This document shows, piece after piece, positions 4,501 through 22,302 of a stretch of DNA of 64,000 nucleotides (position 1 is the first letter of the stretch; each line of letters begins with the position of its first letter). Under the pieces are notes generated by a model. That model saw only the letters and a program-made list of their open reading frames with translations, had not been told where the DNA came from and did not search any database. Where the stretch lies: positions 17,833 through 81,832 of the forward strand of contig CAZIZG010000003.1 of the NCBI GenBank assembly GCA_964543815.1, given 5' to 3'. The position numbers and the translations under genes are program-made. The stretch comes from an uncultured Bdellovibrionales bacterium. GTDB taxonomy: Bacteria; Patescibacteriota; Minisyncoccia; Moranbacterales; UBA1568.

Positions 4501-5907
4501 TTATTGCGTTTCCAGAACCTTTATCAAAAGTCGCACCGGCGTACCAGCCGAGCCTTTGGCGAGAAATTCGTCAGGCAGCGCAGTCATGCGCGGAGCAATA
4601 TCGAGATGGACCCAGGAGTAAGCACCATCTACGAATTGCTTGAGAAACACCGCCGCGGTGATAGCACCACCATAGCGGGTACGACCGAGATTGGCCACAT
4701 CACCAAATGTTCCTTTCACCTCATCATCATATTCATCCCACAGTGGCAGTGGCCAGACATAGTCACCGCTTTCTTCGCCAAGATGGCGAAGCTTTGTTTC
4801 AAGTGCTTCATCAGCGGTAAACAACGCTGTTGCTCGTTCGCCGAGAGCTCCCATCGCTGCCCCCGTCAGTGTTGCCACATCAATGACGAGTGACGGCCGA
4901 TATCGTTTGGCATAGTGGAGCGCATCAGCGAGGATAATCCGACCCTCAGCATCAGTATTGAGCACCTCGATAGTCTTGCCCGACATGGAATGAAGAATGT
5001 CCCCTGGCCGATAACTCGCGCCCGACATCATGTTCTCCACTGCCGGTACCAAAACCACAATATTTTTTTTCACCCGAAGACGTGCCGCTGCTGCCAACGC
5101 ATGAATAACCGCGGCACCACCCGACATATCCATATTCATACCGAGAACAGCGTCACTCGGTTTCAAATTGATACCACCAGTATCAAACGTCACACCCTTC
5201 CCAACGAGCACGATAGTCTCATTCGAAGCCGAAGATAATGATTTTCCTTTCCTTCCGCCAAAGTATTCAAGAATTATAAAACGTGATGGCGCTGACGATC
5301 CTTTACCAACACCAAGTACACCGCCCATGTTGAGTTTACCCATCTGCTTTTCATCGAGTATCCGCACAGTAATGGGTAGCCCCTTCACTGACGCTCTTGC
5401 ATGACGAGCCAAAATATCAGGCGTCATGGCGCCACCAGGCATGGTAGCAATATGACGGGAACGATTCACTTCCTCTCCGATGATTTTCCCTCGAACGATA
5501 CCAGCCTTCACCATCTTGTCAGAAGTACCGGAGAGGACTATGCTCTCAATCTCTGGAAAGCCACCCTGGGGCTTCGTCAAAAATTCCCGAAAGGAAAATT
5601 CTGCCATGACAAAATTCGTAACGAGGAGTTCTGCCAAATCTCCCGTGGCAATTTTCAAATGAGCAAAGTGAAACTGTCCCAAATCAATGGTTATTTTCGC
5701 ATACTTTTTTGCCAATGCCTCACGCACCACCCGGCGCGCCAAGAGCATGAGTCTCCGCCTCGTCATCTTGTTACGCTCACCAACGACCAGCACCAGGGTT
5801 TCGACGCCATTCTTAATCTCCACCACACCATCTTTTCCTTCTTGTTCCAATCGCACCCGAAGCGCTCCTTTTTTCAACGTCTCTTTTTCGGTAATCTTGA
5901 TGTCCAT
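4501..5907 (-). CDS. pepA: Leucyl aminopeptidase (M17 family)
   Basis: 468 aa with the NTDAEGRI and VGKGVTFDTGG motifs characteristic of M17 aminopeptidases. Confidence 0.85.
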   Translation of the reverse strand: MDIKITEKETLKKGALRVRLEQEGKDGVVEIKNGVETLVLVVGERNKMTRRRLMLLARRVVREALAKKYAKITIDLGQFHFAHLKIATGDLAELLVTNFVMAEFSFREFLTKPQGGFPEIESIVLSGTSDKMVKAGIVRGKIIGEEVNRSRHIATMPGGAMTPDILARHARASVKGLPITVRILDEKQMGKLNMGGVLGVGKGSSAPSRFIILEYFGGRKGKSLSSASNETIVLVGKGVTFDTGGINLKPSDAVLGMNMDMSGGAAVIHALAAAARLRVKKNIVVLVPAVENMMSGASYRPGDILHSMSGKTIEVLNTDAEGRIILADALHYAKRYRPSLVIDVATLTGAAMGALGERATALFTADEALETKLRHLGEESGDYVWPLPLWDEYDDEVKGTFGDVANLGRTRYGGAITAAVFLKQFVDGAYSWVHLDIAPRMTALPDEFLAKGSAGTPVRLLIKVLETQ

Positions 5908-5934
5908 AGAATACTATCCCTTCTCAGTAATTTC

Positions 5935-6408
5935 TTATTGTTTACAGAGCTCCTTTATATCGCTCAATACTTCTTCCGCATGACCATCAGGTTTGACGTC
6001 CTCGTAGACTTTGGCAATCTTTCCTGTCGGATCAATAAGAAACGAAGTCCGGAGAATTCCCATATATTCTCGACCCATAAATTTCTTCTTGGCCCATACC
6101 CCATAGAGCGCCACTACTTTCTTTTCTTCATCGGCCAGCAGTGTGAATGGTAACTCGTATTTCGTAACAAATTTGGCGTGTTTCTTTACTGCATCGACAC
6201 TAATACCAAGTATCACTGCCTTGGACCGTTTGAATTTAGGAAAGTTATCCCGGAACTGACAAGCTTCTACCGTGCACCCCGGGGTATCATCTTTGGGATA
6301 AAAATAGAGTACCACCCACTTCCCAACATATTCTTTAAGCGTATGCATTTTCCCCTCCTGATCAGGCAAAGTAAAATTCTTCGCCTTGGTTCCTTTTTTG
6401 GGCAACAT
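5935..6408 (-). CDS. bcp: Thiol peroxidase / peroxiredoxin Bcp
   Basis: 157 aa containing YFYPKDDTPGCTVEAC, the AhpC/TSA peroxiredoxin motif. Confidence 0.85.
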   Translation of the reverse strand: MLPKKGTKAKNFTLPDQEGKMHTLKEYVGKWVVLYFYPKDDTPGCTVEACQFRDNFPKFKRSKAVILGISVDAVKKHAKFVTKYELPFTLLADEEKKVVALYGVWAKKKFMGREYMGILRTSFLIDPTGKIAKVYEDVKPDGHAEEVLSDIKELCKQ

Positions 6409-6439
6409 ATTTCCTGGTTCGTTATCGATTAGTTTGGAA

Positions 6440-6866
6440 TTTTAGCACAAAAGAAAAAGCCCCGCTACGACGATGCGTAACGAGACAACTATTTGATTCC
6501 TCCTTGGCTCAGTGGGTAGCCGTTCGACCAAGGGCGGCGTTTACCTTCTCGTAAAGACGCCTGACTCCCTTGGAGCGTGTACCACGCACGTGGAGAACCT
6601 TGAGGATGGCCAGGGCATCGCCATGACGCTTCCTCCGATAGAACGCCACGGCGTCACCGAAAAGCTCGTGTGAATTCCTTCGCTCCAGCTTCCTGAAACG
6701 CGGTACGATTCCTGTCTCCGAATGTGGGCAATACTCGCCCGCTCTTTCTTCACTCAACAATTCTCACCTCTGCTCTCTACAAACAAAGAAACTCCTCTCG
6801 CGGAGGGTTTCACGTATCACCTGTCGTTCCAGGCTTTAAGAATAGTAACCTAAAATCCTTATCCCG
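6440..6866 (-). ncRNA. Ambiguous 430-bp GC-rich stretch: candidate structured RNA (RNase P RNA-like motifs) or an 83-aa basic ORF (6509..6760)
   Basis: Long intergenic stretch that is GC-rich relative to its neighbours. The minus strand contains GAAGAAAGAGCGGGCGAGUAUUGCCCA (resembling the RNase P P4/P5 region GAGGAAAGUCCGGGCUCCAUAGGGCA), GGUAAACGCCGCCC and CAAAUAG (both present in E. coli M1 RNA), and a hairpin CCTTGG...CCAAGG. A U-rich 3' end reads GCGGGGCUUUUUCUUUU. The P15-P18 region and a clear 3' P4 strand were not found. Alternatively, a TTG-start ORF with an AGAGGUGAG RBS encodes an R/K-rich 83-aa protein. Confidence 0.3.
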
Positions 6867-8093
6867 TCAAGTCTTGAGGTATTTTCTTTCCTTGAGGCGT
6901 TCCGGAAAGTATTCTTGCTCTGCTTCTTCGGCATTCTTGAAGTCAGGGGTGTACTTATATCCTTTGCCATAGTCAAGCTCTTTCATGAGCTTAGTCGGCG
7001 CATTCCGCAAATGGAGCGGGACCGGTTCGTTCGGAAATTTTCGTACGTCCTCCTTGGCTGCTCCATAAGCAACATAGAGGGCGTTTGATTTTTTGGAGAG
7101 CGCGAGATAGACAACGGCCTGAGCCAAATGGACCTCACACTCCGGCATTCCAAGCATCTGACAAGCCTGAAAAGCCGCCACTGCCTGTGGCAGCGCGAAG
7201 GAATTAGCAATACCGATATCCTCAGACGCAAAACGGACTAGCCGTCGTGCCACGTAGATCGGATCCTCACCCGCTTCGAGCATCCGAGCGAGATAATAGA
7301 GCGAGGCATTCGCGTCGTTCCCCCGCAGTGACTTATGGAGAGCTGAAATGATGTTATAGTGCTCCTCGCCATTTTTGTCATAGAGAAGGTGCGAGCGCTT
7401 CACTATTTGCTCCACAATCTTTGTATCAATATGCGTATGTTTGAGGGCACAGGCCTCGAGCGTGTTAAGCGTCATCCGAGCATCACCTCCCGAAACAGCC
7501 GCGATAAATGAGAGCGCCTCGTCATCTGCTTGTACTTTTCTCCCAAAATATTCCTCACTTTTTTTGAGAGCCCGCTTCATGAGACCAACGAGCGTCTCCT
7601 CGTCATGCTTTTCCAAGACCAAAACTCGCGCTCGCGAGAGGAGGGCAGCATTGACCTCAAAACTCGGGTTCTCCGTCGTCGCTCCGATGAGCGTCACGGT
7701 TCCCCGCTCGACGTGCGGGAGCAGACTATCTTGTTGTGACTTATTAAATCGGTGAATTTCATCGACAAAAAGAATCGTTTTCTTTCCCTGTTTCTTGTTT
7801 TCCTCCGCTTCGGCAAAAACGGCTCGCATATCCTTCACCCCGCTCCCGACAGCCGAGAGCTGGCGAAATTCAGCCTGCGTAGCCTGGGCAATAAGAAGAG
7901 CGAGCGTTGTCTTGCCACTCCCGGGTGGTCCCCAAAAGATGAGTGATGGGACATGGTCAGCCTCAATCGCTTCACGGAGAAACGATCCTTCGCCAAATAC
8001 TTTTTCCTGTCCAAGAAACTCCTCTAGTGTCTGGGGTCGCAATCGTTCAGCGAGTGGAATATACGTGTTGGAATCAGACATACTCTGTTTCAA
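6867..8093 (-). CDS. rarA: Replication-associated recombination protein A (AAA ATPase RarA/MgsA)
   Basis: 408 aa with Walker A GPPGSGKTT, Walker B ILFVDEIHRFNK, and C-terminal MgsA helical domains. Confidence 0.85.
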   Translation of the reverse strand: MKQSMSDSNTYIPLAERLRPQTLEEFLGQEKVFGEGSFLREAIEADHVPSLIFWGPPGSGKTTLALLIAQATQAEFRQLSAVGSGVKDMRAVFAEAEENKKQGKKTILFVDEIHRFNKSQQDSLLPHVERGTVTLIGATTENPSFEVNAALLSRARVLVLEKHDEETLVGLMKRALKKSEEYFGRKVQADDEALSFIAAVSGGDARMTLNTLEACALKHTHIDTKIVEQIVKRSHLLYDKNGEEHYNIISALHKSLRGNDANASLYYLARMLEAGEDPIYVARRLVRFASEDIGIANSFALPQAVAAFQACQMLGMPECEVHLAQAVVYLALSKKSNALYVAYGAAKEDVRKFPNEPVPLHLRNAPTKLMKELDYGKGYKYTPDFKNAEEAEQEYFPERLKERKYLKT

Positions 8094-8892
8094 GTATGAT
8101 TCCTACTGGGCAATGATCCGAACCCATCACCGAAGGCAGAATAAAAGCATCCCGCACCCGATCACGGAGTGAAGCACTGACGAGAAAGTAATCAATCCGC
8201 CAGCCGACGTTTCGTTCTCGAGACTTGGCAAAGTGGGACCACCAAGAGTAGTGTCCATTCCCTTCATGAAAGAGTCGAAAGGTATCCACAAATCCAGCCT
8301 TGATAAAATTTTGAAATCCTTCCCGTTCCTCATCAGTAAATCCATGTTTCCCAACATTCCCCTTGGGATTCGCCAGGTCGTCCTCGGTATGAGCCACGTT
8401 CAAATCACCACAAAAAACAACCGGCTTCTTTTTTTCTAAGCTTTGACAGTAGGCCAAAAAAGCTGGATCCCATTGTTTGTGACGGAGTGGCACGCGACTC
8501 AAATCCTCTTTGGCATTTGGGGTGTACACGGTCACCACATAAAACTGAGCGAACTCTGCCGTAATGACCCGCCCTTCAGCACAGGGATCGCCATAGCCAT
8601 CGGCCAAAAGATTGAATTTTTTAATAATCTGAGCTGGGAAACCATTAGTGACAGAGAGCGGCTTGGTCTTGGTAAAAATCGCTGTTCCGGAGTAACCCTT
8701 TCTCTCGGCCGAGTGCCAGTACTCTTCATACTCTGGCAAATCAATCTCCGCCTGACCCTCGAGAGCCTTTGTTTCCTGAAGACACAAAATATCAGGTTGA
8801 TACTCCTCAATAAATGGCAGAAATAATCCCTTCTTATGGACCGCCCGAATACCATTTACATTCCAGGAAAAAATTTTAAGTGATTGTGACAT
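8074..8892 (-). CDS. xth: Exodeoxyribonuclease III (AP endonuclease Xth)
   Basis: 272 aa beginning MSQSLKIFSWNVNGIRA with ...LCLQETK...GDLNVAH...SDHCPV, the EEP-family motifs. Overlaps the rarA start by 20 nt. Confidence 0.85.
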   Translation of the reverse strand: MSQSLKIFSWNVNGIRAVHKKGLFLPFIEEYQPDILCLQETKALEGQAEIDLPEYEEYWHSAERKGYSGTAIFTKTKPLSVTNGFPAQIIKKFNLLADGYGDPCAEGRVITAEFAQFYVVTVYTPNAKEDLSRVPLRHKQWDPAFLAYCQSLEKKKPVVFCGDLNVAHTEDDLANPKGNVGKHGFTDEEREGFQNFIKAGFVDTFRLFHEGNGHYSWWSHFAKSRERNVGWRIDYFLVSASLRDRVRDAFILPSVMGSDHCPVGIILETEYV

Positions 8893-21930: not shown

Positions 21931-22302
21931 ACTCAAAAAATACTTTAGAGTTGAGTTTCCAAAAAATATCTTCCATTTTCTTACCCTATCATTCCCACCG
22001 AACATCTCTGACTCGCTTCATCGAACAGGGAGCTGTCCTGTACCAGGGTGTCAGTCACGCTCGACTGTTACCGATACGCTCATCAGAGATGTTGCCGCCG
22101 GGAACCGGAGAAAGAAAACGAAAGAATATTTTAGAAAACTTAATGATGTTTCTTTCTCCCAAGAATTCTTTTGGGCGACTTTGTAGCCAAAAGCAGGTCT
22201 TTTCGTTGTGTGAAAAGTTTCGGCGTACAACGTCAGAGAGAATCTCGCTGGGATCCTCTCGGCACAAAAGAGTTGCTTGGGAGTAAGAAATCACCGAAAA
22301 AA

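Follow-up and report, generated by a model that had tools for sequence, protein, structure and literature searches.

P4 is the most conserved part of the RNase P RNA. Functional TPR domains usually contain at least three repeats, and the leaders of bacterial mRNAs are known to carry 5′-terminal stabilising stem-loops, such as the 5′ hairpin of ompA, as well as attenuators of the terminator type. In bacteria of the candidate phyla radiation, RNase P RNAs can be diverged, lack some helices and score below the Rfam cut-offs, and such diverged RNAs were recovered after the thresholds had been lowered (PMC8172020).

The gap between rarA and bcp analysed here shares features with each of these systems. 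It resembles RNase P RNA (RF00010/RF00011) in a few short strings and in being GC-richer than its surroundings, but no covariance model matches it, P4 pairing and RNA-level conservation are lacking, and it contains a reading frame that is presumably translated. The protein encoded by this frame differs from described TPR proteins (designed CTPR2, PDB 1na3; TPR1 of HOP, 1elw; CHIP; Tah1; MamA) in having 1.5 repeats in 83 residues, in matching no Pfam TPR model at threshold, and in carrying a family-specific disordered N-terminal motif, GDYC(P/R)HSETG(V/I)(I/L)P. As in stabilised or attenuated leaders, one hairpin lies 1-3 nt from the inferred 5′ end, and the interval from the promoter to the ribosome-binding site also holds a second one with a U-rich run; the two hairpins are conserved with covariation. 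Unlike the described attenuators, this leader has no antiterminator alternative, no Rfam match and a predicted 5′ end, and its motif is limited to one gene in one lineage.

The window, which is the whole 64-kb stretch of DNA analysed, belongs to a member of Candidatus Moraniibacteriota (Patescibacteria / candidate phyla radiation) as judged from the relatives of its RarA, which is 92, 83, 82, 79, and 77% identical to that of the closest genome contigs. The genes around the gap and the features of the reading frame are as follows.

8074-8892, minus strand: exonuclease III gene
6867-8093, minus strand: rarA
6409-6866: rarA-bcp gap, 458 nt
6764-6770, minus strand: Shine-Dalgarno sequence GAGGUGA, read directly
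6509-6760, minus strand: coding sequence of 83 aa, TTG start codon at 6760-6758, TGA stop codon at 6511-6509
5935-6408, minus strand: bcp, start codon at 6408
4501-5907, minus strand: leucyl aminopeptidase gene

The gap between bcp and rarA had been pointed out in an earlier note on this DNA, and it exists. It had been described there as an unusually long non-coding stretch, which does not hold, as 252 of its 458 nt are coding and the remainder consists of 106 nt with a promoter and a leader and 100 nt with a terminator and the next promoter. The elevated GC content was real and modest (0.52 at 6440-6866 and 0.567 in the ORF versus 0.486 in the 64-kb window), and it is attributed to the Arg, Gly, and Ala codons. 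Gene callers left the ORF uncalled on three long ENA contigs bearing the identical sequence. The gap contains an ordinary, lineage-specific, unannotated small protein gene.

The small gene and its protein family

The reading frame of 83 aa with a TTG start and a GAGGTGA Shine-Dalgarno sequence (6770-6764) had been offered in the earlier note as one of three readings, with no strong preference among them, and it proved to be the correct one, with a dN/dS of 0.12, a conserved family, and a confidently predicted fold. Between the window and its 83%-identical relative (L004), the dN/dS was 0.117 (Nei-Gojobori), the differences at codon positions 1, 2, and 3 numbered 12, 3, and 28, and both indels inside the ORF in the DNA alignment were exactly 3 nt long. 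Four other ORF pairs gave dN/dS values of 0.21-0.56. Substitutions in the ORF thus follow codons, not base pairs as an RNase P RNA would need, and this pattern indicates that the ORF is under protein-level selection.

When 5.8 bn proteins were searched with the 83-aa ORF, the only matches were the identical protein and one with 83% identity (P0002), whose locus (L004) has the same exoIII-rarA-ORF-bcp arrangement. With tblastn, L007 (E 5e-7) and L009 proved to carry the ORF behind rarA, with an identity of about 30%. Among the closest genomes read, a small same-strand ORF follows rarA in L004, L005, L007, L008, and L009, and no copy was seen after rarA in the available sequence of L006 and L010, which for L006 ends about 570 nt downstream of rarA. 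A profile built from the small ORFs recovered 17 clusters among the 5.8 bn proteins, and an exhaustive HMMER run over 1.84 bn representatives yielded 53 matches at E≤1e-3. The short matches (74-119 aa) have both the motif and the helices and are clear family members; the five long matches checked against Pfam were mostly multi-TPR proteins. The family comprises some 30 small proteins or clusters of 67-119 aa, in which the reading frame is retained down to 20-30% identity. At every locus with readable neighbours, on Moraniibacteriota-like contigs, the order is rarA, small ORF, and bcp or pepA, and every relative has a purine-rich GAGG/AGGA site before the start codon. Neither Pfam nor NCBIfam had a match for the ORF, nor for three ORFs that overlap it in another frame or on the opposite strand.

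Structural analysis divided the protein into two parts. The N-terminus is disordered and carries the motif E-E-R-x-G-[DE]-Y-C-P-H-S-E-T-G-I-V-P; the consensus of the family is E-E-R-x-G-D-Y-C-(P/R)-H-S-E-T-G-(V/I)-(I/L)-P, followed by a variable linker, and L-F..A.......G..G.A-L-A-x-L-K-V-(L/I)-G-x-R....P-x-G-F..L...V...I-G in the C-terminal part. The AlphaFold2 model, calculated from a 17-sequence alignment, had a mean pLDDT of 80.7, with residues 1-29 non-helical and of low score and three helices at residues 30-42, 46-58, and 64-77 (pLDDT 88-96). These three helices correspond to 1.5 TPR-like repeats, and they form antiparallel pairs with the packing geometry of the TPR-like clan (CL0020); the three or more tandem repeats that form a ligand groove are lacking.

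The window protein had no Pfam match at E≤10. Among 17 members, three matched TPR_16 and three matched TPR_19, all below threshold, with best E values of 0.026 and 0.093. The family profile matched multi-TPR proteins at E values from 6e-17 to 1e-3. Foldseek against the PDB gave nothing significant (E≥0.48), and a profile search of the PDB gave only weak matches to RagB/SusD-like and DNAJC3 TPR regions. Since the Pfam TPR matches were below threshold and the PDB profile matches were weak, the protein is called TPR-like and not a curated member of the TPR families. The fold class is already known, and the family is new to Pfam, as the leader motif described below is to Rfam.

For a classical peptide-binding groove, 1.5 TPR repeats do not suffice. 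From the predicted fold and the conserved linear motif, the likeliest role of the protein would be that of a small adaptor or regulator acting through protein-protein contacts, by dimerising or by docking on a partner, with the N-terminal Cys-x-His-Ser-Glu-Thr-Gly motif most likely serving as a recognised or recognising peptide. The Arg/Lys richness remarked on in the earlier note is true of the window protein (pI 10.6) and not of the family (pI 4.7-10.6), and nucleic-acid binding through bulk positive charge was rejected as a family trait on this ground. Tryptic digestion of the protein is expected to give AGEYCPHSETGIVPR, HGDALAILK, and a peptide containing LYEK.

Some genomes carry two copies of the gene. 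Two tandem paralogues were seen in L005, L085, and L094, where the motif of the first is changed to GFCPKVVETFF and the second is a 67-aa protein without the N-terminal motif. Tandem paralogues overlap (ATGA) behind one leader in L005 (about 2033-2560), L085, L094 (3663-4204), and L095-L097, and at such loci hairpin H2 of the leader bears a branched insertion of about 40 nt. In L090, one ORF was seen together with a larger H2 insertion of about 50 nt.

Promoter, leader and terminator

The non-coding parts of the gap contain the following elements.

6842-6870, minus strand: putative sigma-70-type promoter, -35 TTGACG at 6870-6865, 17-nt spacer, -10 TACTAT at 6847-6842
6819-6834, minus strand: leader hairpin H1, GCCUG-GAACGA-CAGGU, 1-3 nt after the inferred 5′ end
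6811-6788, minus strand: leader hairpin H2, GAAACCCUCC-GCGA-GAGGAGUUUC
6791-6779, minus strand: U-rich tract UUUCUUUGUUUGU, its first bases being the end of the 3′ arm of H2
6499-6505, minus strand: Shine-Dalgarno-like AAGGAGG, past the stop codon and ahead of the terminator
6448-6486, minus strand: intrinsic terminator of the small gene, 11-bp stem at 6486-6459, tail UUUUUCUUUUG at 6458-6448
6439-6447, minus strand: extended -10 element TGCTAAAAT, by consensus only

The -35 hexamer of the putative promoter overlaps the stop codon of rarA (6869-6867). With 9 of 12 consensus matches, TTGACG-17-TACTAT was the sole promoter-like site in the scan of 6300-7000, and the pattern TTGAC[AG]-N17-TA[CT]N[ACT]T is retained in the loci read, where most of the spacer is variable. 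Transcription would start at about 6837-6835. The leader of about 75 nt would then consist of H1, a conserved single-stranded linker (GUGAAUNCGUG in most relatives), H2, and the U-rich tract, followed by GAGGUGA.

Eleven leaders were folded separately, and all of them, including those of L007 and L008 with divergent sequences, formed two hairpins and a U-rich run. The 5′-proximal hairpin differs in sequence in the distant L007, L008, L099, and L101, and H2 with the U tract is absent in L099 and L101, which are distant family members. Covariation was scored on an N-padded, hand-registered alignment of 12 leaders (A6), which replaced the MAFFT alignments A4 and A5, in which the hairpins were out of register. 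In A6, 17 pairs were 100% paired, a percentage that is inflated because the alignment was fitted by hand to the structure. Five of the 10 pairs of H2 change on both sides (12 cells), and the covariation score in this hand-fitted alignment was 0.227, compared with 0.115 ± 0.016 for shuffled and at most 0.055 for slid partners. Compensatory changes are visible in the raw sequences too, such as CCUC/GAGG to CCGG/CCGG and GAAAC/GUUUC to AGAAC/GUUCU. The seven pairs of H1, likewise 100% paired in A6, showed only changes from G-C to G-U and from U-A to U-G and no double compensatory change in this alignment; these changes keep the pairing on the ORF strand and not on the opposite strand.

A covariance model of the leader, built from A6, matched the window once, at 47.4 bits, the next best score being 9.5. 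Among the loci it gave 14 strong matches, and each one checked against the ORF coordinates lay directly upstream of a small ORF; matches at 13.8-20.8 bits elsewhere in the loci were taken to be generic hairpin-plus-U sites. A strict DNA pattern of the leader, run against 241 M metagenome records, found three real instances, all with the small gene. The other three of the six metagenome matches (L086-L088) were rejected as chance matches inside unrelated sequence. A short upstream ORF from a UUG in the U tract was also rejected, since it is not conserved among relatives.

H1, at the extreme 5′ end, is most likely a protective stem-loop. H2 resembles a terminator and could therefore be a weak attenuator; it would be no more than a leaky terminator or a stem bound by protein. 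The short forms have a ΔG of -7.5 to -12 kcal/mol, with a bulged stem and an interrupted U tract, compared with -14 to -20 kcal/mol and U5 or more for the 3′ terminators, and the tip of H2 tolerates insertions of about 40-50 nt (L005, L085, L090). A role as attenuator is a guess, because H2 is weaker than true terminators, was unflagged by a simple terminator scan, and showed no antiterminator pairing: the MFE folds of the 11 leaders gave only H1 and H2, and inspection found no complement of the 5′ arm of H2. No Rfam aptamer family matched the leader at E≤10.

At the other end of the gap, the terminator scan found a GC-rich stem of 11 pairs (6 G-C) followed immediately by a U run (tail TTTTTCTTTT; ΔG -14.1 kcal/mol), and this terminator is conserved in the relatives. 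An extended -10-like element, TG[CAGT]TA[AG]AAT, stands right after the terminator in L004, L005, L007, L009, L085, L090, L102, L103, and L104, where it precedes bcp or pepA, and TGCTAAAAT is accordingly read as a probable promoter element of bcp. With blastn, the leader and the terminator were found in L005 and L009 and the ORF was not; the ends of the gap are found without its middle because of these conserved flanking elements.

The AAGGAGG downstream of the stop codon has counterparts (GAAAGGAGG or a close variant) at the same position in L004, L007, L009, L098, L102, L103, and L104, and it is complementary to the 3′ tail of 16S rRNA. No consistent start codon follows it among the loci with the element, and a mini-ORF seen in the window and L004 (TTG-TCT-CGT-TAC-GCA-TCG-TCG-TAG) was rejected as it is absent in the other loci. 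This element may be a relic of the ribosome-binding site of a second paralogue, or a stabiliser that acts by binding ribosomes.

Readings of the gap

With high probability, the gap holds a complete transcription unit for a single gene, read from the minus strand, and not a ribozyme. The sigma-70-type promoter abutting the rarA stop codon would produce a transcript of about 390 nt, in which the leader (roughly the first 75 nt) would fold into H1 and H2. H1 would most likely protect the 5′ end, and H2 with the U-rich run may act as a weak terminator that passes only part of the transcripts. Translation from the TTG start behind the GAGGUGA site would yield the 83-residue protein, with its flexible N-terminal peptide (Cys-x-His-Ser-Glu-Thr-Gly) and three-helix C-terminal module, and the strong intrinsic terminator would close the unit just before the bcp promoter. 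Use of the promoter, the transcript ends, and translation are predicted here from sequence, and the start of transcription, a regulatory role of H1 and H2, and the function of the protein are likewise proposed by inference.

One alternative that the earlier note had put beside the ORF was a reduced or unusual RNase P RNA on the minus strand, supported by short strings resembling P4/P5 and other segments of rnpB in the correct order. All of the quoted strings exist on the minus strand:

6751-6725, minus strand: GAAGAAAGAGCGGGCGAGTATTGCCCA, the ‘P4’ string
6589-6572, minus strand: GTGCGTGGTACACGCTCC
6545-6532, minus strand: GGTAAACGCCGCCC
6495-6489, minus strand: CAAATAG
6533-6528 and 6507-6502, minus strand: CCTTGG and CCAAGG, the arms of a hairpin
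6458-6448, minus strand: U-rich end

The resemblance to P4/P5 is backed by no covariance-model score. In the search with the RNase P, tmRNA, 6S, and SRP models that had been proposed in the note, none matched at E≤10 with permissive filters on either strand of 6300-7000 (701 nt), where the only Rfam matches at that level were three at chance level (ctRNA_p42d, sR60, and Xist_exon1); that to ctRNA_p42d (14.9 bits, E 4.4) covers only the terminator hairpin and the U tail. Across the whole 64-kb window, Rfam cmscan gave zero matches at the gathering score and ARAGORN found no tRNA or tmRNA gene. Diverged RNase P RNAs of this radiation can score below the Rfam cut-offs, and no other rnpB was found in the window at the gathering score, both of which speak for a hidden RNase P RNA here; the null result at E≤10 nevertheless carries weight, because these diverged RNAs are recoverable at lowered thresholds (PMC8172020). 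Moreover, four of the five ‘RNase P’ strings sit within the coding sequence, which is under purifying selection, and the ‘P4’ string corresponds to ORF codons 4-12 and encodes SEERAGEYCP of the conserved protein motif. In L007 and L009, at about 30% protein identity, this peptide motif is kept and the ‘P4’ nucleotides are not. The 3′ strand of P4 was found neither by the earlier reader, who had missed P15-P18 as well, nor in the present analysis, and the folding of the entire gap is ordinary (MFE z = -1.45, with 7 of 100 shuffles equally good). A reduced or diverged RNase P RNA is thus refuted, its remaining probability being close to nil. The note's broader suggestion of another structured RNA survives for the 5′ leader of about 75 nt with its two conserved hairpins and for the terminator, and fails for the body of the region.

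That the ORF is an open frame arisen by chance in a spacer, or a pseudogene in decay, with only the rarA terminator and the bcp promoter conserved, is also very improbable. The empty gap left by the gene callers on three contigs, the lack of a curated family, and the two relatives without a copy after rarA (L006, ending about 570 nt past it, and L010) would fit such a view, but it is contradicted by the substitution pattern, and the retention of the frame across the family, the confident three-helix model, the conserved ribosome-binding site, and the tandem paralogues in some genomes also argue against it. An unlikely reading, though a less remote one, makes the leader the main product, as a two-hairpin small RNA of about 55-60 nt that ends at H2 and the U tract, with the ORF expressed only by read-through or regulated antitermination, in the manner of an attenuator or a riboswitch. 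Among closer relatives, the leader DNA is indeed more conserved than the ORF (blastn, L005 and L009), the single-stranded linker GUGAAUNCGUG is retained, H2 with its compensatory changes is followed by UUUCUUUGUUUGU, and the motif is tied to the small gene only. Part of this DNA conservation, however, belongs to the promoter and the start-site region, H2 is weak, bulged, and missed by the terminator scan, with an interrupted U tract, neither an antiterminator alternative nor an Rfam aptamer match at E≤10 was seen, and the leaders of distant family members differ and are without H2.

There is a small chance that the leader, with H1, GUGAAUNCGUG, H2, and the U tract, represents a cis-regulatory RNA that is new and specific to the Moraniibacteriota lineage. 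It would be an attenuator or a leader bound by a protein, which might be the small protein itself. It would then control a mini-TPR protein whose N-terminal Cys-x-His-Ser-Glu-Thr-Gly peptide has an undescribed function in these reduced-genome bacteria, for example as a switch that depends on redox state or metal, encoded next to the thiol peroxidase gene.

The main value of the analysis is a correction: an apparent structured-RNA gap is a missed small protein gene in a reduced genome of the candidate phyla radiation. Small lineage-specific proteins are under-annotated in these bacteria, and the gene missed on three contigs is an example. The family, with some 30 clusters and no Pfam model, and the leader motif, with no Rfam model, are candidates for the databases. 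The result has no bearing on a long-standing question and leaves the knowledge of RNase P in these lineages unchanged; the remaining novelty lies in the possible regulatory leader and the N-terminal motif.

Repeats and insertions near the locus

Several relatives have a dispersed repeat of about 130 nt, bounded by terminal inverted repeats (CTCCCAAA...TTTGGGAG), in the interval from rarA to the promoter of the small gene, and both orientations occur. Copies in one orientation relative to the small gene lie in L091 (2743-2870), L092 (35-159), L094 (3454-3578), and L085 (3258-3350, a partial copy of about 94 nt), and copies in the other orientation lie in L009 (4226-4355) and L103 (229-352). The window has a copy at 22156-22283 on the plus strand, with 80.6% identity over 129 nt (E 6e-28). 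Its fold is a long branched hairpin with -56.3 kcal/mol and a z of -5.79. No Rfam family matched the repeat at E≤1, and it probably belongs to the MITE- or REP-like repeats of the lineage.

The L001 and L002 contigs, which carry identical bcp genes, differ in their calls of rsmH (Methyltransf_5) downstream of mraZ, at 5580-6474 in both: one ENA contig has it as two pieces of 122 aa and 191+ aa, the other as a single gene of 323+ aa. In the window, the corresponding stretch lies upstream of about 4400 (minus strand), and the split call probably reflects a frameshift or an assembly difference between samples.

Small insertions were seen at the promoter of the small gene. L104 contains a 140-nt insertion (1252-1391) with 18-nt terminal inverted repeats (CCCCGCACCTTTTGCGCC...) that is absent in L105; it sits exactly at the -35 TTGAC of the promoter, with TTGAC on both sides. 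L102 has similar GC-rich inverted repeats ending in ...GCGGGGTTGAC, and L098 has a short GC-rich hairpin with the same end. This site beside the promoter appears to be a preferred target of small palindromic insertions that restore the -35 hexamer.
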